A DNA stretch of 20,000 nt from Catajapyx aquilonaris (taxonomy: Eukaryota): the NCBI GenBank assembly GCA_000934665.2, contig KZ538481.1:46907-66906 (forward strand), written 5' to 3'. Of the stretch, positions 2,173 to 18,134 are shown in pieces. The notes under the pieces are model-generated. The model worked only from the letters and a program-made list of their open reading frames with translations, made no database searches and was not told the DNA's origin. Positions within the stretch are counted from its first letter, which is position 1. Each line of letters begins with the position of its first letter. The position numbers were made by a program, and so were the translations under genes.

Positions 2173-2292
2173 CCACAACAACCGAAAAGTGGACCGGTCT
2201 AGACTACGTGGTGGGGCGTAAAATAATGATCTCACTCACTCATTTGGTGACAATGTGAAAAACTTAATAGCATTTACCTGTTCATGCGACAT
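39..2292 (-). CDS. ABCH: ABCH-type ABC half-transporter, copy A, 5' part only (continues off the left edge)
   Basis: Exon 39-190 reads (GVN)[47 protein letters not shown], nearly identical to the matching exon of copies B and C. GT donor at 37-38, AG acceptor at 191-192. Inferred upstream micro-exon 2278-2292 (ATG TCG CAT GAA CAG|GTAAAT). Confidence 0.85.
547..838 (+). mobile_element. tRNA(Gly-GCC)-derived SINE, copy 1
   Basis: A box TGGTCTAGTGG and B-box-like GGTTCGCACCC. The head GCCAGCCAAGCGGGAGGTC-GGGGTTCG resembles eukaryotic tRNA-Gly GCCTGCCACGCGGGAGGCCCGGGTTCG. Unique body and A-rich tail. Flanked by TTATTGC / TTACTGC (TSD-like). Absent at the paralogous site of copy C (~13940). Confidence 0.8.
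897..1177 (+). mobile_element. tRNA(Gly)-derived SINE, copy 2 (local 350-bp tandem duplication of copy 1 plus flank)
   Basis: Near-identical to 547-838 and shares the same ~40-bp upstream flank. Repeat units start at 506 and 856. Confidence 0.8.
1724..1991. mobile_element. pogo/Tigger-like MITE with damaged left end (paralog of 14957-15228)
   Basis: Right TIR CCGGATAATCGGGAGTACAGTG + TA is intact. Left end is degenerate (ctctgaactccca). Interior matches 14957-15228. Confidence 0.7.
2132..2182 (+). repeat. (CAA)n microsatellite
   Basis: Direct reading; paralogous to 15368-15433. Confidence 0.95.
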
Positions 2293-2460: not shown

Positions 2461-3033
2461 TGATGCACCCCCGGCTTACACCATTATAGTTATATGTAAT
2501 CTGAACTGGTGGAGTTACTTTCCTTCCCTTTTTTTTACCATCAGTTACAACCAACAAAGATTCCTTTCTTTTCACTCCACTCTTGCTTAGGAAGAGGAGC
2601 GTGTCTTAACTCTGCCCGACTGAGGTGGCAAACAATACCAACAAAAAGAAAAAGGAGAAGAAGAAGAAGAAGAAGAAGAAAATGAAGGAGGACCGTCTCA
2701 ACTAAGCCTCCCAAGACCAGACCCGGAAGACGGACCAGACGACCACCACCCAGAGTGACCAACCACTGGCCAAGCAGATACAAGAGACGGAAGGGACGGG
2801 ATGATTTGGAATACATCCATCTACAATCAACACTGGTAGCGTGAGTAGTTTAAAGGAAGGTCACATTCACACTCGTAGCTGTCTTGTAATGCGGTGTAAC
2901 TGTTTGGAAATAATATCCCGATTTTCTTAAACCAATCCGAGTTATGTTTTATTTAAAAACGCACCTGCATTCACACCTTGATTCACACACGACAACTTTC
3001 AGGTACTTTTCAGCTTGTTGATTAGGCCTGACA
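2461..3033. mobile_element. Solo-LTR-like insertion, 573 bp
   Basis: TG...CA termini with a 6-bp TSD CTCGTT (2455-2460, 3034-3039). Empty site aaactcgtttaga in copy C (~15758-15770). An alternative reading is 2462-3032 with an 8-bp TSD ACTCGTTT. Contains (GAA)8 at 2657-2680. Confidence 0.7.
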
Positions 3034-3554
3034 CTCGTTTAGAACCGCCCACTGTTTCTCTTCCCTTTCAGAAAAAACTTCTCTGCCCAAGGATGCTGTC
3101 CATGAGTTGTTGTTTTTTTTGTCTTCCAACTTTACAGGATGACCCTGGCATTATACGTTCACCAAATTGGGAATCAGATTGACTCAGTATGCACTGTATA
3201 TTGCAAGTTTCAAGTAAATACTGCAATCACGAATATAATATTGAATATTAAACGATTGAAATGTATTAATCTGATTAGGAAACACGAGCATTATACAGTG
3301 TATCGAGGTTACCTTCACGTGTCATGAGGACAACGAACGCGACGAGTAAAGACAACCTCGTAATATAGGCACAGTGCATGATAAGCGATAAGTGTAATTA
3401 CAGCACAGCTACGCTTGAGTACGTTACACTCACGTGTGTTTAGAATCTTCCAAGATTTTCTTAGCCCAAGGCCAAGGTCACACATATCATTGTCCCTTAT
3501 GTTGCATACAGGACTGCTTGCACCACGATGCGGTACTTTGTGGTTTACAGTTTT

Positions 3555-3790: not shown

Positions 3791-3999
3791 CAGTGGTAGA
3801 TTTAGGGGGGGGGGGGCTCCCATAGCTCCCCCAGAGGGGTAAAAAAGGAAAAAANNNNNNNNNNNNNNNNNNNNNNNNNNNNNNNNNNNNNNNNNNNNNN
3901 NNNNNNNNNNNNNNNNNNNNNNNNNNNNNNNNNNNNNNNNNNNNNNNNNNNNNNNNNNNNCCCCCCCCCCCCCCAAATAAATCCCTGGATCTGCCACTG
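3791..3999. mobile_element. hAT-like MITE spanning an assembly gap
   Basis: Imperfect TIRs CAGTGGTAGATTTAGGG / CCCTGGATCTGCCACTG. 8-bp TSD CATTCAAT (3783-3790) / AATTCAAT (4000-4007). Internal G and C runs. Confidence 0.75.
3855..3960. other. Assembly gap (N run)
   Basis: 106 N, bordered by homopolymer-rich sequence. Confidence 1.
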
Positions 4000-4549
4000 A
4001 ATTCAATGATCCCATTGCCTTCAATTTAATGCACGGATGCTCCGCCCGTGGGCCACTTTGGGCCTGAGGACAAGAAACTTTTTTTTTAAAATTCACATGT
4101 ACAGTCTGTTCGTATATTAAAGTGTCCAGCATGCAAAAAATTATGAGCTTCGGACAAACATTTGCATATATTTCATGGCTTGCGATTTCCAAGAAGTTAT
4201 CCACCCGCACATTCTTCATAAGTAATAATATAATTTTTGGCAAGGTGAAACGACTTTTTTGAGTTCTTCCAAAATACAACAAAAATCAAAATAGACTTTT
4301 AACTTACAAGTGCTGGGTAACATTTCTTTGTTCATTCATTATTAAATCTCCTCATCTTGTTCACGTACGATATTCTTAGATTTTTTTTCAGTCCAGGAGG
4401 TTCGTAACAAAAAACAAAATACTCTATAGGGCTCTGTAGAAGTCTTGCATTTGTTTGTAAAAGATGCACCCAAAACAAATATATGGCTAGCCAAGACTCT
4501 ACCATTACAAAATTAATAGCAGGCATCTTCCACTTCACTGTAAACAGTG

Positions 4550-7500
4550 TTAAGCGCTAAATTTCTTTCTAAACCCCCTCAGAGAAATGAGAGTCATGGA
4601 CACCAAAATGATGAACCAAACAATAACGGAGACATAACCTTGCCATACAGTAGTGTTGTATATGGTCCATCCTCTGGTAAACATGCTTCTAAGAGCCTCG
4701 TTAACAAACGTGTTTGGATTCATGTAACACAACAACTTTACCGGAAGAAAGAAGACGCCTTCGATGGGCCATATGACCCCGCTCATAAGGTGGCTAAAAA
4801 TGATTATGCTGGCGGCAAAAAACACTGCCATTATCACGGTTGAGAGAGTGATTCCCATGAAGATACCAAACATACTGGCACACATCCCGTGCAAAATACA
4901 TAGAAGAAACAGCCAAGGTGAGGAACTGTAGAAAGGGAAGCCTAAAAGGAAATAAATCACTAGGGTCATGCATATGGAGGTGTATGTGACTATGAACATC
5001 TGTGTGGTCAGCTGGGCCAGGATCAGCTCCCAGTGACGTACACCTAAAAAAAAAAATGTAAACATTTAAAAATTCGTAAACTATTATTATTTGTTTGTTT
5101 GGCAAATGGCCAAATAGGCTACAGCATTACCTGCTACTATTATCCTTTGCACCATTCCGTCTTCTTTTTCCCACATCATGTTGGCTAGCGATGATGCCAT
5201 AATGATTGAAAATATAGCACTGAAAAGCCATAAATATTATAATATGTGCGCGCGTTTTTTCGAACATTACTGTATATCATATTGTTTTTCCTTCATGAAT
5301 TGCTGGCTTACTTGGCCAGTGCAGCCGGAGCGCTGAAGTGAGTAAACTCTGCGTCATTGGTTCCATATATCGGCTTTCCAAAGTTCATTGGGGATACTCC
5401 CATTACAGGGTTCATGTCGCACGTGGTGAGCATCTCTTGCATGAAATCAGAGTATTTCAACAGCAAGTGCCTCTGAATTAGAAGTGCAATGTGATAATCT
5501 GAATTCAAAAATTAAAGTTCGAAAATAATTAATCTGAAACACCAGTATTGCTCATGGCACTTACTGCTCATGTCCATTCGGAGTGTGGAAAATGAATTTT
5601 GCAGAGTGGTGTTGTCCACATTCAGTCCCGATAGAATCTTTTCAGTGACGCTATCAGAATAGTTAGCAGGAAATGTAATTACGCCCGCTACGTCACCATT
5701 TTTCGCTGCAAACCCCGCTGCCGATTCGTTATAATACGGTACCTGAAACACCAATAAAAATAGTTCAAAATTTCTTTAACAGCTTCATGTTTATATCAAG
5801 CACAAGATTACAAGTACGCATCACAGGACGTCATGTAATGTATCACAATTTTTGTCTGAAGAATGTGATCACTTATGAGTTCATGAACGACTTACCAAAT
5901 TGACCACATTCTTGTCGAGTCCACCCAAATACCTGCAACTCAAGTTCAGAAACAGACAGTCGTCGAATGGCTGGCAGATTGGGTCATTCGGCCATTCGTG
6001 GTTCACCACAGCCAGGTGAGTTTTCCGAGGGTTTGGTCCAAGTGTAAAACAAACTAAGAACATCAAAATGGGACCAATATTCATTATGGTAAGTGTTGGT
6101 CTGGAATAAAATTCCACATCATTAAGCGCACGCCAGAAGTCGCAGGAAATGCTCCTGTCAACAACCTAGGCCTACCTGTAGTCACGCCATAGCCGTGTGA
6201 AGTTCTTCCTAAGCATGGCTGCAATGTGATTCTTGGAAGAACCGGTTCTTAACTGACTCTTCTGATGCACAGAGGCTTTGGAAGCAATGATCACTTCTCT
6301 CTCGGCCTTCTTCCCAAGCTCAGTGGGCTGGAGGTCAGACCTGTTGTTCATGGCGATGTCTTCGTCGTCGTTCACACACAGTGTCAGGAAGACATCTTCC
6401 AGTTTTGTAGCCCCGTACTGTCGCATGAGTGTGCCTGGTTCATCCTGTGCTAAAAGACGACCATTTCTCATCATGCCCACAGTATCTGCTTGCCTTGCTT
6501 CCTCGATGTAGTGGGTGGTGATGATGACTGTTACCTTGTTAACAGAGGCCACATGTCGAAGATACTTCCACAACCTGTAGGGGACAATTTTTTAAAAATT
6601 CTCTGCGCATAATGCATATCACGTAACTTACATTTGCCTCAAAATTGGATCCACTCCCACTGTGGGTTCGTCCAAAATGAGCAGCCTTGGCTCGTGGAGT
6701 AACGCAATTGCAAAAGACAACCGCTTCTGTTGTCCGCCACTGTATGGTCAATTACAATGTGAATAAAGAACACAATAACCACGTATCAAGTACTACCTGA
6801 GGGTGTGAATGTGCCTTATTTTCGGCGGAAGCTGCAACAACTTGAGCAGAAATGTAAGCCTCATCTCGATGTCTGATTCGCTCATTCCGTATATGCGACC
6901 AAAGTAGTGAATAATTTCCTTAATTGTCAGTGCCTGGGACAGACCTTTCTCTTGAGGCATGTATCCAACCACGGGTCCTGGGACACCACATTCGGCAGTG
7001 TTGGGTTCCAATCCGAATATTCGGATATGTCCAGAGTGCAAGTACTTGTCCCCAACAATGCAGGAGAGCACTGTGGTCTTCCCGCATCCACTGGCGCCAA
7101 GAAGGGCGTAGCTGAAATGACAAGAGAAGGTTCAAATAAGACCTAAGGTCAAATACTGTAGTTGGTGTAATTGAGTAACAAACGTACATTTTTCCTTCTT
7201 CCACTCTCATATCGAATTTCTTCAGGACATAATTGGCTTTGGCACCTCTTCCGTACGATTTGACGGCCTTGGAAAACACAACCGCATCGGTACCTATGCT
7301 CTTCGGAAGGACCCCTTCGCCTGTGGACATGTTTACTACCTGTTACGCAAGATAAAATATGTGATTAGGCTCATAATGAGAGACCCTGAACAAGCTATAG
7401 GGAAACAGCGTATAATTAACCTTCAGGAAATTCAGCTCTTATTCTGTCTCAACTTTTATAATGCGTAAAAATGTCATGGCGAGACGCCCAGATAATCATG

Positions 7501-7987
7501 ATTGTACATATTTTGCGTGCTAAAATTTCGGCATTTGGTTTAAACTAGTTCTCTTCCGGATTCTGACCTCTGGCTCTGGAAGCTCCATTTTTGATGGAAA
7601 TCCCGCATGTTGGGGAGGGAGGGGGGGTCTTTTTCCGTTTTTGACCCGACATGCCCGGGCGGAATTACACTCCCTACTCTGCCCAGGGCCAGGAGAAAAG
7701 GGGTGGTGTATTTTACAAAGGCAGAAGTGACTATAATTACTGCTCCCTGCCTTTGGAACCTCACTCTTCCCCCTAAAATCACGGGGTACATAAAAAATTA
7801 TTGCATGCCAACAATAATTAAGAGATTATTCTGACAATTATTTAGTATGATTATGTAACGCCTTTTATGGTCTCAAACTAATAATATTCAAAATTTACCT
7901 AAACTGCTTAGCAAAAATATTTGCTCCCACGGTCGATGTTCTGTTGTAGTCAACAACTTCAATAGCACTTGCCTGTTCATGCGACAT
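4550..7987 (-). CDS. ABCH: ABCH-type ABC half-transporter, copy B (complete; ~705 aa from ATG 7330, ~713 aa with micro-exon)
   Basis: Exons (minus): [7973-7987 inferred, GC donor], 7188-7339 (proximal ATG 7330), 6797-7111, 6632-6739, 6176-6574, 5896-6100, 5565-5742, 5312-5498, 5131-5219, 4550-5043 (TAA). The eight downstream introns are GT-AG and in phase, giving 2118 nt from ATG 7330. Motifs: Walker [10 protein letters not shown]-loop GYMPQE, signature LSGGQ, Walker B/D-loop [13 protein letters not shown]-loop TTHYIEEA. These are followed by one TM, a large extracellular domain and an ABC-2-type TM bundle (SGVIWPIEG), as is typical of ABCH. Confidence 0.93.
7622..7797 (+). mobile_element. 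5'-deleted, diverged copy of the same SINE at the paralogous site of copy B
   Basis: gggtctttttccg..gacccgacatgcc..ctccctactctgcccagggccaggagaaa..cggggtaca-A tail. It is followed by ttattgc and the same downstream flank (taattaagagat) as in copy A. Confidence 0.75.
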
Positions 7988-8507
7988 TCAGGAGCTGCTG
8001 TAGACCTCCTGCTCCGACCACTTCTTAGTTCAAAGTAAAGGCCATGTTGCTACCCCCACGTCCTCACTCCTTCACTGTTGTCCGAGGAAAATCCTAATAG
8101 TATTGGGGAAGGGGTAGTCATTATGTAACTCATACTGTAACCGCCCACTGTTACTCTTCCTTTTCAGGAAACCTTCTCTGCCCAAGGATGCGGTCCAGAG
8201 AGTTTTTTTTTGTCTTCCTTTCATGCCAGAAGGTTCATAACAAAAAACAAAATACTCTAGGGCTCTGTAGAAGTCTTGCATTTGTTTGAAAAAGATGCAT
8301 CAAAAACAAATTTTTATGTCCAGCACAATAAGAAAAGCATAATGAATATTTTGGTTATACCATACTCATAACACAGGATGGCGACGTCAATCCGCGTCAA
8401 TCACTTCTGATCTTTCGCATCTTGCCGTCTCTGTCTGCGGAGTGTGCTTTTAAGTGAGGTCCTCATCGTCCTGTGATATGTGGGGAAATAAGTGTTAAAC
8501 TAGATAT

Positions 8508-8508
<1 letters not shown>

Positions 8509-8562
<54 letters not shown>

Positions 8563-8591
8563 TTTTACCCCGGTGGGCACGATGGCCGATT
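8509..8591 (-). mobile_element. Extremely 5'-truncated non-LTR retroposon stub with (TAAA)n tail
   Basis: Perfect 10-bp TSD ACTAGATATT (8499-8508, 8592-8601). Minus strand reads AATCGGCCATCGTGCCCACCGGGGT followed by about 14 AAAT units. Confidence 0.75.
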
Positions 8592-9454
8592 ACTAGATAT
8601 TATACTTGACTATAGAAGCTGCTAATTAATGTGAAACCTACCATGCACTTGTGAATGATTTTTTTTTCTTTTGCAGTATTTCTTAGCAAACTTTGAGAGG
8701 GCTTGGTCCGGGTCCTGCAACAAGAACAAAGATTAATCCACTCTATGGAATTCCAAGGAGAGTTAAGAAATTATTTATAATAATATAACTTCTTCTTCAA
8801 CAAGTGCTAGTTGCTTGAAAAATTCATCAACATTTTTCTTCAATATTTCTATGACGTCCTCCTCTATACAATAAGGCTCAGTTCATACTCCACCTGTCGA
8901 CCCGGCCACCTGTAGAGATTACAATCAATCATTATTAATAATAATACACGGGGATTTTAGAATACAAATTAATATAATCAATGGCAAGTTTTATGATTTT
9001 GATTAACACAAAAGCAGCATCGACAGTAGTAGCCTCCATTCAAACATGTGCATAAGTTCATTTTTACCCTAAACACTAACCTTCAACGTTGGTGTAGAAT
9101 CATACATTTAATGGCGTTTTCACCTATTAACATCCTAACTTGATTATGATTAGACAGGAGATAGTGGATATTAATATCAGCCAGATTTTTACCGATGCTA
9201 ATTAGAGATCACTTTTGTTACATATGGGGTAATCCAGTCCAGTTTAGTAATAAGTTCCATTGTGAAGTAATCTATGCAATAGTAGCCCTACTAATTGACG
9301 TACAAAATGTTACATTCCTCTTCCCCGGATTTACCAGCCATTTCATCGTTTAATTATAACTGGTATTAAGCTCTTTCACTTCAAGTTGCTTGATTGTCAT
9401 TATGTCAGAGGAGCTAATCACATAGCCACTATTTGACGATTCAATGGTACTTAC

Positions 9455-9469
9455 TTGCTTGTGCGACAT
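9455..9469 (-). other. Diverged paralog of the start micro-exon (MSHKQ); candidate alternative first exon of copy B or orphan exon of an older paralog
   Basis: ctga ATG TCG CAC AAG CAA|GTAAGT has the same length, phase and context as the MSHEQ exons. Inr-like TCAGTT on the minus strand at 9543-9548. Confidence 0.55.
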
Positions 9470-9652
9470 TCAGCTGATGCTGTGTCTCCGATCTCTTCTA
9501 AGGACAATAAATAAAGGTACCCCTCACGAAAACGAGCTTTTCAACTGAAATTATGTGAATGAGTTGTTTAGCAACACTTTCGCTTCATTTAAGGGTTCAA
9601 AACTGTTTCTACATGAATTTATATACAAAGAAATAATTTCATTGCTACTATG

Positions 9653-9658
9653 TTTATT
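9653..9658 (-). terminator. Candidate polyadenylation signal of copy C
   Basis: AATAAA on the minus strand ~73 nt downstream of the stop codon. Confidence 0.55.
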
Positions 9659-9730
9659 TCACTTTTCTACTGTGATACTCTACCATTACAAAATTAATAG
9701 CAGGCATCTTCCACTTCATGGTAAACAGTG

Positions 9731-12700
9731 TTAAGCGCTAAATTTCTTTCTGAACCCCCTCAGAGAAATGAGAGTCACGGACACCAAAATGATGAACCAA
9801 ACAATTACAGAGACATAACCTTGCCATACAGTAGTGTTGTATATGGTCCATCCTCTGGTAAACATGCTTCTAAGGGCCTCGTTAACAAACGTGTTTGGAT
9901 TCATGTAACACAACAACTTTACCGGAAGAAAGAAGACGCCCTCGATGGGCCATACGACCCCGCTCATAACATGGCTAAATATCATTATGCTGACGCAAAA
10001 AAACACTGCCATTATCAAGGTTGAGAGAGTGACTCCCATGAAGATACCAAACATACTGGCACACATCCCGTGCAAAATACATAGAAGAAACAGCCAAGGT
10101 GAGGAACTGTAGAAAGGGAAGCCTAAAAGGAAATAAATCACTAGGGTCATGCATATGGAGGTGTATGTGACTATGAACATCTGTGTGGTCAGCTGGGCCA
10201 GGATCAGCTCCCAGTGACGTACACCTAGAAAAAAAATGTAAACATTTAAAAATTCGTAAATTATTATTATTTGTTTGTTTGGGAAATAGGCTACAGCATT
10301 ACCTGCTACTATTATCCTTTGCACCATTCCGTCTTCTTTTTCCCACATAATGTTGGCCATCGATGATACCAGAATGATTCCAAATATAGCACTGAAAAAT
10401 GATAAGTGTTACAATGTGTGCGTACGTTTTTTTTGTCTATTTCTGTATACCATATTGTTTTTCCTTCATTCTTTGACTTACTTGGCCAGTGCAGCCGGAG
10501 CGCTGAAGTGAGTAAACGCTGCGTCATTGGTTCCATATATCGGCTTTCCAAAGTTCATTGGGGATACTCCCATTACAGGGTTCATGTCGCACGTGGCGAG
10601 CATCTCTTGCATGAAATCAGAGTATTTCAACAGCAAGTGCCTCTGAATTAGAAGTGCAATGTGGTAATCTGCATTGAAATTTGAAAGATTGATTAATATA
10701 ATAATTAATCTCAAACACCAATATTACTCATGGCACTTACTGCTCATGTCCATTCGGAGTGTGGAAAATGAGTTTTGCAGAGTGGTGTTGTCCACATTGA
10801 GTCCCGATAGAAACTTTTCAGTGACGCTATCAGAATAGTTAGCAGGAAATGTAATTACGCCCGCTACGTCACCATTTTTCGCTGCAAACTCCGCTGCCGA
10901 TTCGTTATAATACGGTACCTGAAACACCAATAAAAATGGTTCAAAATTTCTTTAACAGCTTCATGTTTATATCAAGTACAAGATTATAAGTACAGAGTGA
11001 TCGAAAAAGAATGTCCCAATCTGAAAACCCTATAACTCGGAAACTTGTAGATATATCTGAGTGATTGAAGTTTTGAAATGCTAAGAAATGTCTAAGTTTT
11101 GGTCTCACCTTAGTCTGGTTCGATATGACGTTCATGTGTCGCTTGGCAGATAAAAAAGGTGGTAATCTGTGTTGTGCCAAACCCTATATCAATCATATCT
11201 GGAGCTACCGTTGCCAAACCGTTGCAATCCTATCCCGTATGTGCTGGATATCTTGGGTGTTTACACCACACACATGGTTCTTGATTAATCACATAGAAAG
11301 TCGCCTCATTCATGAAACAAACCTGCCGTAGAAAAGTTTCATTTGTTCAGCCTCCCAATGTGCGAAGACTTTAATGAGAAGTTTTGCCATGCCTAGCCTC
11401 TCCAGAAGGGCAGATATTACCCCGGAGGACTTTTTTGTGGAGATACATGTATGGTGAAAAGATCCGGCATCACCAGCACCTACGTGATAAGATTATAACG
11501 GTAACGCCAGACATGCCTGAGCGGGTTTGGCACGACACCTATAACCGTATTAAAATTTTTTGACCGACAAATGGAGCTCGTATCGAAACAAATTGTGGTA
11601 AGCCCAAAACTGTAGAGAGGGATGTAGACACTTCTGAGAATTTCAAAACTTAAATCATTAAGACACGTCTACAAGTTTTCGAGTTATATAGTTGTCAAAT
11701 TGGGACATTATTTTTCGATGACCCTGTACTTCAGGTAGGCCTACTCATTATAGGACGTTATGTCACTATTTTTGTCTGAAGAATGTGATGACGAGTGAGT
11801 TTATGAAAGACTTACCAAATTGACCACATTCTTGTCGAGTCCATCCAAATACCTGCAACTCAAGTTCAGAAACAGACAGTCGTCGAATGGCTGGCAGATT
11901 GGGTCATTCGGCCATTCGTGGTTCACCACAGCCAGGTTAGTTTTCCGAGGGTTTGGTCCAAGTGTAAAACAGACTAAGAACATCAAAATGGGACCAATAT
12001 TCATTATGGTAAGTGTTGGACTGGAATAAAATTCCACATCATTAATCTCACGCCAGAAGTCGCAGGAAAGCTCATGCCAACAACCTGGGCCTACCTGTAG
12101 TCACGCCATAGCCGTGTGAAGTTCTTCCTAAGCATGGCTGCAATGTGATTCTTGGAAGAACCGGTTCTTAACTGACTCTTCTGATGCACAGAGGCTTTGG
12201 AAGCAATGATCACTTCTCTCTCGGCCTTCTTCCCAAGCTCAGTGGGCTGGAGGTCAGACCTGTTGTTCATGGCGATGTCTTCGTCGTCGTTCACACACAG
12301 TGTCAGGAAGACATCTTCCAGTTTTGTAGCCCCGTACTGTCGCATGAGTGTGCCTGGTTCATCCTGTGCTAAAAGACGGCCATTTCTCATCATGCCCACA
12401 GTGTCTGCTTGCCTTGCTTCCTCGATGTAGTGGGTGGTGATGATGACTGTTACCTTGTTAACAGAGGCCACATGTCGAAGATACTTCCACAACCTGTAGG
12501 GGACAATTTTTATAAAATTCTCTGCGCATAATGCATATCACGTAACTTACATTTCCCTCAATATAGGATCCACTCCCACTGTGGGTTCGTCCAAAATGAG
12601 CAGCCTTGGCTCGTGGAGTAACGCAATTGCAAAAGACAACCGCTTCTGTTGTCCGCCACTGTATGGTCAATTACAATGTGAATAAAGAACACAATAACCA

Positions 12701-15364
12701 TGCATCAGTTACTACCTGAGGGTGTGAATGTGCCTTATTTTCGGCGGAAGCTGCAACAACTTGAGCAGAAATGTAAGCCTCATCTCGATGTCTGATTCGC
12801 TCATTCCGTATATGCGACCAAAGTAGTGAATAATTTCCTTAATTGTCAGTGCCTGGGACAGACCTTTCTCTTGAGGCATGTATCCAACCACGGGTCCTGG
12901 GACACCACATTCGGCAGTGTTGGGTTCCAATCCGAATATTCGGATATGTCCAGAGTGCAAGTACTTGTCCCCAACAATGCAGGAGAGCACTGTGGTCTTC
13001 CCGCATCCACTGGCGCCAAGAAGGGCGTAGCTGAAATGACAAGTGAAGGTTCAAATAAGACCTAAGGTCAAATACTGCAGTTGGTGTAATTGAGTAACTA
13101 ACGTACATTTTTCCTTCCTCCACTGTCATATCGAATTTCTTCAGGACATAATGGGCTTTGGCACCTCTTTCGTACGATTTGACGGCTTTGGAGAATACAA
13201 CCGCATCGGTACCGGTGCTCTTCGGAAGGACCCCGTCGCCTGTACCCATGTTTACTGCCTGTTAAGCAAGATAAAACGATTGATTAGGCTCATAATGGTA
13301 CACCCGGAACAAGTTATAGGGAAACACCGTGATTAACCTTCAGGAAATTCAACTCTTATTCTGACTCAACTTTTATAAAGCGTAAAAATGTCATGGGCAA
13401 GGCCCATTGATAATCATGATTGTACTTATTTTGCGTGCTAAAATTTCGACATTTGGTGTGGACTAGTTCTCTTCCGGATGCTGACCTCTGGAAACTCCAT
13501 TTTTGATGGAAATCCCACAGGTTGACGGCCTTTATTGCGCAGCTAATTACAACTTGTTAACCTTCTACTGAAGGATAGGCTACTTCAGTAATATAAATGT
13601 CAGAGAAATCGCTTAGAATTAATTAATGCTTTTGCAACTTGCACTGTCTTGCCTGATGTTGATACCTTGTATTGTGTTCATATAATCATGCAATATATAA
13701 CAAGTTACGTTTGTATGCTATAATGATATATTCTGTAGTTATTTGAATGCTATTCACGTATAAATTCATGCGAAGCATGTGTCGTAAAGGTACATTTTTT
13801 TGCTCTAAAACGTATTGCTGTGAATCGTATTTTAGTGTATGTAACACATGACAATCCTATCAGATTGGAAGCAATTTCTTTAAGAAGTGTCGAGTTGAAA
13901 GCAGTTGGATAAAAGAGAGACTGAAAAAATGCAATCAGAAAATGCCAATACTAATTAAGGGATTATTCCCACAATTTATGATGATTATGTAATCCTTTGT
14001 TCCTACTTTTGCGGTCTCATTATATAAAATAGCAAGGTTAACTTGTTCATAAAATTCTGACTGCTTGGTTTGGCCGGATTTTCTTGTGTAACATTGCTAA
14101 TGACTCATGATGTACGTAGTATATCAAGCAGTTAATCTGTTCGTCTGCAATAAGTAGCAATATAAATCGTCGTCACTAAGCTTTGTGCCTGGTACTTGAT
14201 AGTTTCATACTCAAAATTCCTCGACTCATATATTTTAGAAGCTGCAAGAACCTTATAATATTGCCTATAATATTACAAATCAATCAGTAAATGTCGATAG
14301 TGCCTGAAGTCATACTTTTTGTTTTTGTACCCCGCGCTAGGGCCCTAGGCCCTCTTAGGGGAGTGGCATACCACCATCCGGTGCAGAGGACAGGGATAAT
14401 GAGGGGGGGGGGGGNNNNNNNNNGGGGGGGGGGGGGGACCCAACCTTTTCGGGCCTTCGTGCCCCTTTGAGAGCAGTTGGTCCTTCTTGTACCCCCTACC
14501 AGGATAAAAAATTTACCGAATCCTTGCCATTTAACTAATCGGTGATAATCGTGATAACTACCTTATAATCAATATTTTGGGACCAGGAATATGATGAAGT
14601 GAAAGAGACATTTTTCCGATTATAATCCAGCTATATTTTTCTTTGTGCAAGCCACTTATGGGCTGGGCTATGTCAAAAATGGCTCGACTTGGACTCAGAG
14701 GTACTTAGCTCCGTACCCCCAGGAGGGGCACCTAGTAACCCTGGTTGGGAAGAATGGGAACCCCTGCACTACAGTATCTAATCTTGATCATAGCATGTAC
14801 GGTGTAGGCCTACGAATTACTTTTGTTGCTTTTCATTAGTTATCTCAATCCGATTTCCACAACAACATTAACCAAGATATGCCTGACTTAGTTTTTGTTT
14901 AATGTCTTAAATATTGTTTTTATGAGCAAATGAAAAACTAACGCAATAACTAACTACACTGCACTCCCGATTATCCGGGCTTGCCGGATAATCGGAAAAT
15001 ACTGATAATCCGAAAATGGTCCTAGATACCATAAAATGAGCTATTCAGAGATTTTAATTAATTACTGCTAAGGTTTAATCAAAATAAAACATATAAATAA
15101 TTTTTAGCTTATCTTCTGTAGAAAAAGTCTGTCATATTTTCTTTGTTTGCGAGACATTCGCATTTTTACGAACTTTTCTCTTGCAATGTACGGATAATCC
15201 GAAACACCGGATAATCGGGAGTACAGTGTATGTAACATTTATGTGAGTGTTCCGAAATTAACATTTTATGATTTTAAATACTAAATTTAAAGTTCTAATT
15301 TTTAAAGTCTGGTTAATTGTTCAGGTGTCCCTTATAACGGACGCTCGGAAAATATGGGCTAAAA

Positions 15365-15432
<68 letters not shown>

Positions 15433-15608
15433 CCGAAAAGTGGACCGGTCTGACTAAGTGGTGCGTCGTAAAACTCATTTGGTGAAAATGTGAAAAACTG
15501 AATAATATTCAAAATTTACCTAAACTGATGATCAAAAATATTTGCTCCCACGGTCAATGATCTGTTTAAGTCACCAACTTCAATAGCACTTACCTGTTCA
15601 TGCGACAT
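9731..15608 (-). CDS. ABCH: ABCH-type ABC half-transporter, copy C (complete; ~705 aa from ATG 13249, ~713 aa with micro-exon)
   Basis: Exons (minus): [15594-15608 inferred], 13107-13258 (proximal ATG 13249), 12716-13030, 12551-12658, 12095-12493, 11816-12020, 10741-10918, 10482-10668, 10303-10391, 9731-10224 (TAA). Exon lengths and NBD motifs match copy B, and all introns are GT-AG. Intron 10919-11815 is enlarged by a transposon. Confidence 0.93.
10993..11726. mobile_element. Non-autonomous Tc1/mariner element (734 bp) in an intron of copy C, with long imperfect inverted arms containing decayed transposase C-termini
   Basis: TA flanks (10991-92, 11727-28). Ends are CAGAGTGATCGAAAAAGAATGTCCCAAT and the reverse complement CAGGGTCATCGAAAAATAATGTCCCAAT. 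Inverted similarity extends more than 200 bp. Absent from the matching 153-nt intron of copy B. Confidence 0.88.
14316..14414 (-). mobile_element. Retroposon 3' fragment whose tail resembles the SINE tail
   Basis: Minus strand CCCCTAAGAGGGC..CCCTAGCGCGGGGTACAAAAACAAAAA versus SINE CCCCTAAAAGGGCTCCCCCTATCGCGGGGTACA-A tail. Absent at the paralogous site of copy A (~1553). Confidence 0.6.
14415..14423. other. Assembly gap (9 N inside a G run)
   Basis: N run flanked by poly-G. Confidence 1.
14434..14766. mobile_element. hAT(Charlie)-like MITE, left end disrupted
   Basis: Ends ..GGGGACCCAACCTTTT and GGTTGGGA..GGGAACCCCTG, resembling CAGGGGTTCCCAACC-type TIRs. Internal GTACCCCC motifs. Absent in the copy A paralogous region. 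Confidence 0.55.
14957..15228. mobile_element. pogo/Tigger-like (Tc1/mariner superfamily) MITE, 272 bp
   Basis: 22-bp TIRs CACTGCACTCCCGATTATCCGG / CCGGATAATCGGGAGTACAGTG (1 mismatch). TA on both sides (14955-56, 15229-30). Repeated subterminal (C)GGATAATC motifs. Confidence 0.85.
15368..15433 (+). repeat. (CAA)n microsatellite
   Basis: Direct reading, ~22 units. Confidence 0.95.
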
Positions 15609-17931
15609 TCAGGAGCTGCTGTAGACCTCCTGCTCCGACCACTTCTTGGTTCAAAGTAAAGGCCATGTGGCTACCCCCATGTCCTCTCCCCGTCCTCCCT
15701 CCTTCACTGTTGGCCGAGGAAAATCCTAATAGTATCGCTGATGGGTTAGTCATTATTAAACTCGTTTAGAACCGCCCACTGTTTCTCCTCCCTTTTATGC
15801 AACCTTCTAGTCCAAGGATTCTGTCCAGAGAGTGTGTTCACACTTCACAGTATGACCATGACCTTCTAATGCGTTCACCTAAAGAGGAATTTCAGTATGT
15901 ACTGGATATTCCTAGTTTCAATTAAATAGTACAATCACTATAAGTGGTAGAATATTAAACGATTGAAATGTATTAATCTTGATTAGGAAACACGCGCATT
16001 ATATATGTCGAGGTTACCTTCACGTGTCTTGAGGACAACGAACGAGACCAGTAAATAGTGGAGGACCTTCAGTGTGACAGCAATATCTTAAATGAAGAGT
16101 TGGAACTGGTTTGCTAAATTTGGGATTAAAAACAAAGGAATATGCGAAATTTTTGGCTTGGAAGTAAGTACAGTACATGATACGCCATAAGTGTAATTAC
16201 AGCACAGATACGCTTGAGTAAGTTACTCTCACGTGTGTTTAGACGCATCATTCATCATCTTCCAAGCTTTTCTTAGCCCAAGGTCACACATGTCATTGTC
16301 CCTTGTTGCATACAGTACTTGCACCACATATTTTCAGTAACATTGCCTAAACAAAATGTGTACAAAAATATTGGAAAACTGGTTTTAATTCCAACACGTT
16401 GCGGTTCTTGAGTGTAATTTTTTGGGGGTCGGATTTACGTGACGTCACAAGAAACTCCCTGGACCGGAAAGCCGAGCACGAGGTTGTTTTATGACCTACC
16501 TCAATCCTTGGGCTGTGAAGGTTACCCCGAATCTCTATAGAGAGCTAGGCGGATTACTCAAGGATACAGTTTTTACTGGAAAGGTCAGTTCTGCAGTCAC
16601 GTCTCTTGGTTTTTATGCTGTGCATGTGAGTCCAAAAATAAAAGGCAATTAACATAATCTATAAACAATGCAAGAGATATGTATAAATTATCCCTTCATT
16701 TTTTTAAAAATAATTCAGGCTAGCATATTATGTAAATTGCAATATTGAGGACAGAAAATCCTCATTACAACATATTGAGCTGCTGCATTGTTTTACTCGT
16801 ACCAGAGTTGCCTGTAAGTGTTTGAAGCAATTTATTGTTAATTATTATTTTTTGTACTTTCCTACATTTTGGGAATATTTTCCCACACTGAGCCTTCAAT
16901 AATTAATTAATAAGTTAATTCTGAGCTGAATATTTATTTTTCAGATGTATCGGCCTTCCCAGCTGCGTTTAATGATTATATCACAAGTTGCAATGCCGTA
17001 ATGACTGTATGCCGTAATGCACTTTTCGCAATGTGCCACACGTGCTGGCAAATATACATGCGAATCGTGTCCATCACTATAACACTTCGATCACACGTGT
17101 AATTTTCATCAGAACTTGGCAAAATTACAATAAGTGTTCGTGACCTTGGGTCTTTCCAGAAAGGAATAAAATCAAGCGCACGTTATAATCTATATGATTG
17201 ACTAGTATCCAATTTGATGCGTAGTTTTAATTAGATAACGATCTGGCCATGTCATATACGTAAAACGTAAGCACAAGTCGTAAACAACGCAGAAGAACGA
17301 TATAAATGTTCAATCATTAGTCACCATTGCACGAGTGATGAAATGGGATCAAACTGAACTACTTAAGTTATAATATTCAAATATTATAAACTGGTAGTTG
17401 GGAGGACCATGTTTTGCTAATTTTGACATAATTTTATCCTAATAACTGGAATAACTCCTGGACCTTTGCCTGTACCCACATCAAGAGATGAAAATTATAC
17501 AAACTCTTTGTTATTGTTTACGATACTGTTGCTATACGCTTATTTGCTCGCAGAGACTTGCAAAAACGTGCTCCATCTGCTCAAAATAGCTCTTTCCGCA
17601 ATCTATACATAAAAAACTTGCCTGGGAATATTAATAATTGCTTTCGTGTCTAACCTACCTCAACATTTCTAGCTGTGACATTGAACATTTGTATGTGAAA
17701 AAAAAACATATGGGCAACAGAGGATTTCCGTCACGTGAACAGTTCTTATTCCTGGAAGTTAACGTTGTCAGAAGAGGGGAAAATCCTTGCTTTACAACTC
17801 ACCTGACCTTGAAGATTTGTTTAAATGTATTAAAAATTAGTGGACATTGGCTAATATTTCCTTGTGGGCAAAATACTCTATGCAACACTTCATATTCCAC
17901 CCCTATTATTATATTTCTATTTTTATTATTC

Positions 17932-18019
17932 AGTAGTAGTAGTAGTAGTAGTAGTAGTCGTAGTAGTAGTAGTAGTAGTGGTCGTCGTAGTAGTAGTAGT
18001 AGTAGTCGTCGTCGTCGTC

Positions 18020-18060
<41 letters not shown>

Positions 18061-18076
18061 CGTCGTCGTCGTCGTC

Positions 18077-18134
<58 letters not shown>
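17932..18134 (+). repeat. Compound (AGT)n/(CGT)n microsatellite
   Basis: Direct reading; AGT runs interrupted by CGT blocks. Confidence 0.97.

Follow-up and report, generated by a model that had tools for sequence, protein, structure and literature searches.

A diverged homologue of the first coding exon upstream of a GC-donor gene copy in a tandem ABCH-type array of Catajapyx aquilonaris

A stretch of 20,000 nucleotides from Catajapyx aquilonaris (assembly GCA_000934665.2, contig KZ538481.1, positions 46,907 to 66,906), referred to here as the window, carries three head-to-tail copies, A, B and C, of an ABCH-type half-transporter gene, all on the minus strand. The middle copy raises the question of which first exon it uses. 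Its own start-codon exon is followed by a GC donor, and a diverged exon of the same type, called unit D, is found 1.5 kb upstream of it, just downstream of copy C. A preliminary description proposed that the duplicated unit had captured the promoter and first exon of an older neighbouring paralog, and that this could provide copy B with a borrowed promoter in competition with a weak exon of its own. The arrangement can be described as an ordinary by-product of tandem gene duplication in which unit D is either a relic or an alternative first exon.

The following gene models form the basis of the comparison.

9731..15608, minus strand: gene model of copy C, 10 exons, 713 codons, intact reading frame
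4550..7987, minus strand: gene model of copy B, 10 exons, intact 713 codons, modelled by homology to C

Copy C extends from exon 1 (15594-15608) to a stop at 9731; six of its internal introns are confirmed by spliced contigs (fixed to CT..AC) and two further ones are placed by homology. The proteins of B and C are identical at 686 of 713 residues, and their codons differ by 28 non-synonymous and 19 synonymous changes. Copy A is represented by exon 1 (2278-2292) and exon 2 (39-190), the remainder lying beyond the left edge of the window. Exon 3 of B matches PF00005 (ABC_tran; E=3.6e-11, 44.2 bits against a cut-off of 25), a Walker A-type motif GASGCGKTT is found in the translation, and the last exon of B matches PF01061 (ABC2_membrane; E=1.2e-11, 45 bits against a cut-off of 26.9). 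The NBD exons thus stand 5' of the exon for the ABC-2 membrane domain, which is the order of reverse half-transporters. With a 139-aa exon as query, the nearest database proteins come from centipede, fish, rotifer, copepod, oyster and sponge and are named ABCH1, ABC transporter G family member 20/23 or snustorr by their sources; nothing above 66% identity is found. With exon 2 as query, the protein database gives no matches among proteins of near and longer lengths, and an Rfam scan of the whole window gives 0 matches. Judged from domain content and order, the assignment of A, B and C to the ABC-2 half-transporters appears sound.

Copies B and C are not uniformly alike. Exon 3 of B with the adjoining 47 nt of exon 4 is letter-identical to C (6693-7111 vs 12612-13030), whereas exon 2 differs at 14 of 152 positions, and this patchy identity suggests gene conversion between both copies. 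One intron of C (10919-11815) measures 897 nt compared with 153 nt in B (5743-5895); the extra sequence has inverted arms of about 107 nt (10988-11094 vs 11625-11731, 84%) and resembles a foldback or MITE-type insertion. Simple repeats also occur in the window, with triplet runs in intron 1 of A (2132-2167) and of C (15368-15433) and a 200-nt triplet array upstream of C (17932-18134). Runs of N are found at 3855-3960 and 14415-14423.

The 5' ends of the three genes share a coding micro-exon of 15 nt, whose features are given below with ^ marking the boundary between exon and intron.

7973..7987, minus strand: first coding micro-exon of copy B, ATGTCGCATGAACAG (MSHEQ), in-frame TGA before the ATG
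7967..7972, minus strand: intron-1 donor of copy B, GCAAGT (CAG^GCAAGT)
2278..2292, minus strand: micro-exon of copy A, donor CAG^GTAAAT
15594..15608, minus strand: micro-exon of copy C, donor CAG^GTAAGT
7340..7972, minus strand: intron 1 of copy B, 633 nt, acceptor TATTTTATCTTGCGTAACAG^G
7188..7339, minus strand: exon 2 of copy B, 152 nt, in-frame ATG 9 nt after the acceptor, A at -3

Read on the minus strand from 7987 to 7973, the B unit is ATG TCG CAT GAA CAG, and the minus-strand reading bears out both the GC donor of B and the GT donors of A and C that had been reported. Across 19 donors examined (B 9, C 9, A 1), letters other than GT appear only in the first donor of B; the other 8 donors of B are all GT and its 9 acceptors are all AG. 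This first donor differs from the donor of C at +2 only, and it equals the consensus (A/C)AG^GT(A/G)AGT, as given in the available text of PMC2490688, at every position save +2. The comparison of the copies marks this GC as a derived T>C at +2 of the intron. According to the same partial text, GC donors make up less than 1% of sites and show a tighter match to the consensus elsewhere (PMC2490688), which fits the earlier statement that AG^GCAAGT is the usual context of GC-AG introns: it is the U1 consensus with only +2 changed. The description of this donor as weak was overstated, the context being the best possible for a GC. Intron 1 ends at an AG preceded by a pyrimidine tract (7359-7339), with ...TAACAG^G at the boundary, and exon 2 starts at 7339 and is translated as VVNMSTGEG... 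Its B-specific sequence begins GTAGTAAAC..., with the variants that mark B located at 7338, 7325-7327, 7316 and 7295-7296. Intron 1 measures 633 nt in B, 2087 nt in A and 2335 nt in C; copy B is devoid of about 1.5 kb of intron 1 and of part of the upstream region common to A and C.

An in-frame ATG is found 9 nt past the exon 2 acceptor in every copy (7328-7330, 13247-13249 and 179-181). Its context (aaacATG, A at -3) is more favourable than that of the ATG of the micro-exon (ctgaATG, T at -3), and leaky scanning, with either first exon, could shorten the protein by 8 residues.

Upstream of copy B, the second unit carries the same elements in a diverged form.

9455..9469, minus strand: unit D, diverged 15-nt exon ATGTCGCACAAGCAA (MSHKQ), same phase and same preceding TGA as A, B and C
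9449..9454, minus strand: donor of unit D, GTAAGT (CAA^GTAAGT)
9440..9517, minus strand: homologous block of unit D, 78 nt, aligning to B 7958-8041, the exon-1 core of A, B and C

Unit D reads ATG TCG CAC AAG CAA from 9469 to 9455 on the minus strand and was correctly placed and phased by the preliminary description. It differs from the family exon by four letters, two of them synonymous (CAT>CAC and CAG>CAA) and the other two turning GAA into AAG. Its donor matches the consensus at 8 of 9 positions. In all four units an in-frame TGA triplet directly precedes the ATG, which is therefore the first possible start. The units of B and D are both in phase 0, and the reading frame of each continues at 7339, the first base of exon 2, as had been predicted for D. 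In structure, unit D is splice-competent: it has retained its ATG and the in-frame TGA before it, a frame of 15 nt and a donor of the consensus type. The next family acceptor downstream of it is that of exon 2 of B, so that the predicted intron would measure 2115 nt and would contain exon 1 of B, which possesses no acceptor of its own.

A common origin of D with exon 1 might be questioned, given that the unit counts only 15 nt and the block only 78 nt, but several lines of evidence speak against a chance look-alike, which can practically be set aside. Exactly 4 copies of the 12-mer CTGAATGTCGCA are found in the 20 kb; they belong to A, B, D and C and share the minus strand, and the copy in D agrees with the others in phase and in its distance to the donor. 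When the exon-1 region of B or of C is aligned locally to the spacer, the score is 26, compared with a mean of 10.8 and a maximum of 17 in 500 dinucleotide shuffles (0/500), and the score of 21 obtained with the region of A is likewise reached by 0/500 shuffles. By blastn, the block is 68.6% identical over 86 columns (E=1.4e-6). It covers the 48 nt before the ATG, the micro-exon and the first 15 nt of the intron. When the spacer was compared at high sensitivity with the remainder of the window, nothing but the three exon-1 cores and one weak, unrelated match (E=5.7e-4) was retrieved. An IUPAC pattern covering both exon types gave 0 matches in a metagenome scan.

Unit D is also old. Within the block, A, B and C are 90-98% identical among themselves, whereas the identity of D to any one of them is 71-76%; beyond the block, the flanks of D are without detectable homology, while intron sequences of the three copies are still 79-86% identical. 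By these values, D is a genuine homologue of the family exon 1 that predates the triplication. The retention of the ATG and of all six letters of GTAAGT at about 24-29% divergence would be mildly unexpected for a dead fragment, its chance being of the order of a few percent as a simple product of per-site identities, without a formal test. This hints at a long-lasting constraint, so that D may still serve as an exon or may have done so until recently.

The position of unit D is best understood from the spacers between the copies.

8325..9676, minus strand: stretch found only in the B-C spacer, 1352 nt, the own 3' flank of copy C with unit D
8219..8324, minus strand: segment u4, upstream edge of the duplicated unit, common to 4386-4491 upstream of A
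9653..9658, minus strand: AATAAA of copy C, no counterpart in B

Homology between B and C ends 54 nt past the stop (4496 and 9677, respectively). In the A-B spacer, the end of the B 3'UTR (4496) joins u4 (4491-4386) after 4 nt. In the B-C spacer, the equivalent neighbours, 9677 and u4 (8324-8219), are parted by the 1352 nt, which are found nowhere else in the window. Because this stretch begins with the poly(A) signal of C, it reads as the native 3' flank of that gene, with unit D inside. The ATG of D follows the AATAAA (9658-9653) at 184 nt, in agreement with the roughly 180 nt first reported. Around 8325-9676, transposon hallmarks were looked for and neither terminal repeats nor target duplications were found. 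A microsatellite (AAAT)n occupies 8505-8565 within this unique part of the B-C spacer. The search for ABCH coding remnants by tblastn of the spacers gave only E values above 0.18, with 0.61 as the best one for the B-C spacer. The proposal that the first exon stems from an older neighbouring paralog stands as far as a true older homologue is concerned; the spacer holds no other ABCH remnant. The breakpoint at 4491-4496 truncates the 3'UTR of B 54 nt after the stop, ahead of the AATAAA that C retains, and the next signal on the strand of B is an ATTAAA at 4030.

An initiator-like motif had been reported upstream of unit D.

9543..9548, minus strand: TCAGTT motif, outside the homologous block of D

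The motif is present at this place but carries practically no weight as a promoter mark because it occurs at chance frequency (13 in the window vs 14.1 expected), stands 26 nt outside the block and is absent upstream of the first exons of A, B and C.

Spliced contigs were obtained from one sequencing run (X1) mapped to the window with a word share of 0.33, which behaves like a transcriptome because its joints are of the CT..AC type. One joint, 13257>2277 (both=6, six ambiguous letters), connects an exon of the exon-1 type ending in ...GAACAG to exon 2 of C at 13258. The junction between micro-exon and exon 2 is thus real in the A/B/C family. The exon-1 side of this contig is placed on A and its exon-2 side on C ('goes back 10981'); because the three copies do not differ in the final 37 nt of exon 1, contigs assembled from short shared words leave the two sides unphased, and this one shows the type of junction and not the copy. 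Most likely, it is a chimera assembled through these identical 37 nt, and it is possible that it comes from a further unassembled paralog or from a mis-scaffolded array, given the runs of N. Of the 81 mapped contigs, 50 are only 90-95% alike, which suggests that more family members exist outside the window. Among the joints listed for run X1, neither 7973>7339 nor 9455>7339 into exon 2 of B is found.

An exact 582-nt contig (3989-4570) covers the B-specific junction and links the last exon of B with the A-B spacer. Two more exact contigs, of low depth, lie at 2964-3262 and 2468-2750, and B may read through towards the promoter of A, or A may have far-upstream starts. An exact contig at 6797-7111 was rejected as proof of B expression, exon 3 and the 47 nt of exon 4 being the same in B and C. 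Among the contigs listed, depth by bin is 0 at 4924-6017, 0.29-1.42 at 8206-9299 and 0 at 15317-15863. A depth of 14.8 in the bin 7659-8205 was considered as a signal of exon 1 of B and discarded; judged by a loose end at 7668, it probably belongs to the repeat at 7625-7778. This repeated element of intron 1 is present in A as two tandem copies (506-835 and 856-1177, 95% identical) and in B at about 79% identity. Its contig depth is very high (bin mean of 179, single places up to 780), and it is probably an expressed SINE-like repeat, without an Rfam match.

On this evidence, the reading preferred here, held with about even confidence, is that copy B relies chiefly on its own promoter and exon 1, and that D is silent or contributes no more than a minor alternative first exon upstream. 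The block at 9440-9517 would be an old duplicate of the 5' exon of the family, comprising a 5'UTR core, the start-codon micro-exon and a splice donor, which arose before the triplication and was left stranded in the native 3' flank of C. Since 8 of the 9 donor positions can still pair with U1, the ordinary U2-type spliceosome would process the GC-AG intron of B. Transcription of D would lead to splicing from its donor to the acceptor at 7340/7339, with the loss of 2115 nt that include exon 1 of B, and the product would be the same protein with MSHKQ replacing MSHEQ. Three histories fit this arrangement. Unit D may have headed an older gene located after C, the units of B and A now lying within its first intron; it may have served the ancestral B locus as a distal alternative first exon, with A derived from a duplication running from u4 to 54 nt past the stop; or it may be a stranded fragment.

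In a more active scenario, unit D and the 200 nt upstream of it form a live promoter and first exon that now drives B, alternating or competing with the GC-donor exon, and that descends either from an older member of the array or from a distal first exon, likewise older. This possibility is a tentative one. It draws on a unit that is structurally complete and in frame, that has kept its start and its donor in place although its block is old, and for which the exon 2 acceptor of B is the first family acceptor downstream; an enrichment of GC donors in alternatively spliced genes, mentioned in the available text of PMC2490688, is consistent with it. However, the joints listed include no RNA joint for D, the one promoter-like mark seen, TCAGTT, is at chance level and is not common to the promoters of A, B and C, the homology upstream of the ATG covers only 48 nt, and any promoter must fit into about 185 nt directly after the poly(A) signal of C. 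The narrower version, in which a live promoter-plus-first-exon module coming specifically from an older array member took over or shares the transcription of B while the donor of B drifts to GC, is rather doubtful. If true, it would represent a promoter hand-over between tandem neighbours, with an expression of B unlike that of A and C and no cost to the protein.

At the other extreme, B may be a decaying duplicate in which the T>C of the donor is an early disabling lesion, neither first exon gives a productive B mRNA and D is a dead relic. The erosion of B speaks for this scenario and counts against the preferred reading: intron 1 has lost about 1.5 kb, a portion of the upstream sequence shared by A and C is gone, the 3'UTR is cut before the AATAAA kept in C and the next ATTAAA is at 4030, and the codons differ from those of C by 28 non-synonymous vs 19 synonymous changes. 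Because of these signs, the GC donor could be a lesion instead of a working variant. Decay is nevertheless improbable, as the 713-codon frame is intact, all other splice sites are canonical, the GC donor lies in the best possible context and the exact contig 3989-4570 leads from the last exon of B across the B-specific junction.

The locus matters mainly for annotation. A gene caller restricted to GT donors would truncate B to the internal ATG of exon 2 or would attach the MSHKQ exon to it. Under every reading, the choice of first exon changes the protein by one residue at most (E4K), so that any consequence would be regulatory. If D is active, the locus would offer a small and clean example of regulatory divergence among young tandem duplicates by means of an inherited spare first exon.

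Tandem expansions of ABCH genes are described for Daphnia pulex (PMC2680897) and Tetranychus urticae (PMC3724490), and, as far as the available texts of both papers allow a comparison, the window resembles them by its head-to-tail copies of an NBD-then-TMD half-transporter and differs by copies without any homologue above 66% identity. GC-AG introns are reported in the available part of PMC7242645 to be enriched among first introns and to be shorter than GT-AG introns. Intron 1 of B resembles this class, as characterized in the accessible portions of PMC2490688 and PMC7242645, by a GC at +1/+2 with consensus letters at the other donor positions, an AG acceptor and a pyrimidine-rich tract, and also by being a first intron and the shortest one of the three copies. 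The predicted GC-AG site of B is not a conserved GC site: it stems from a very recent T>C change, which affects only one of the three near-identical copies.

Variable first exons spliced to a common exon 2 are found in the UGT1A and clustered protocadherin loci. Copy B shares with them two homologous first exons in series, each with its own donor and without acceptor, a single common acceptor and a maintained frame. The difference is that only two units are present here, one residue apart, of which the distal one is a putative first exon, and that a choice between them would affect regulation rather than the protein. Relic exons can also remain at the junctions of duplications, and unit D is like them in being an isolated old single-exon copy with no other coding remnant nearby; unlike them, it keeps its ATG, its frame and a perfect GTAAGT, which is more than would be expected for a long-dead fragment.
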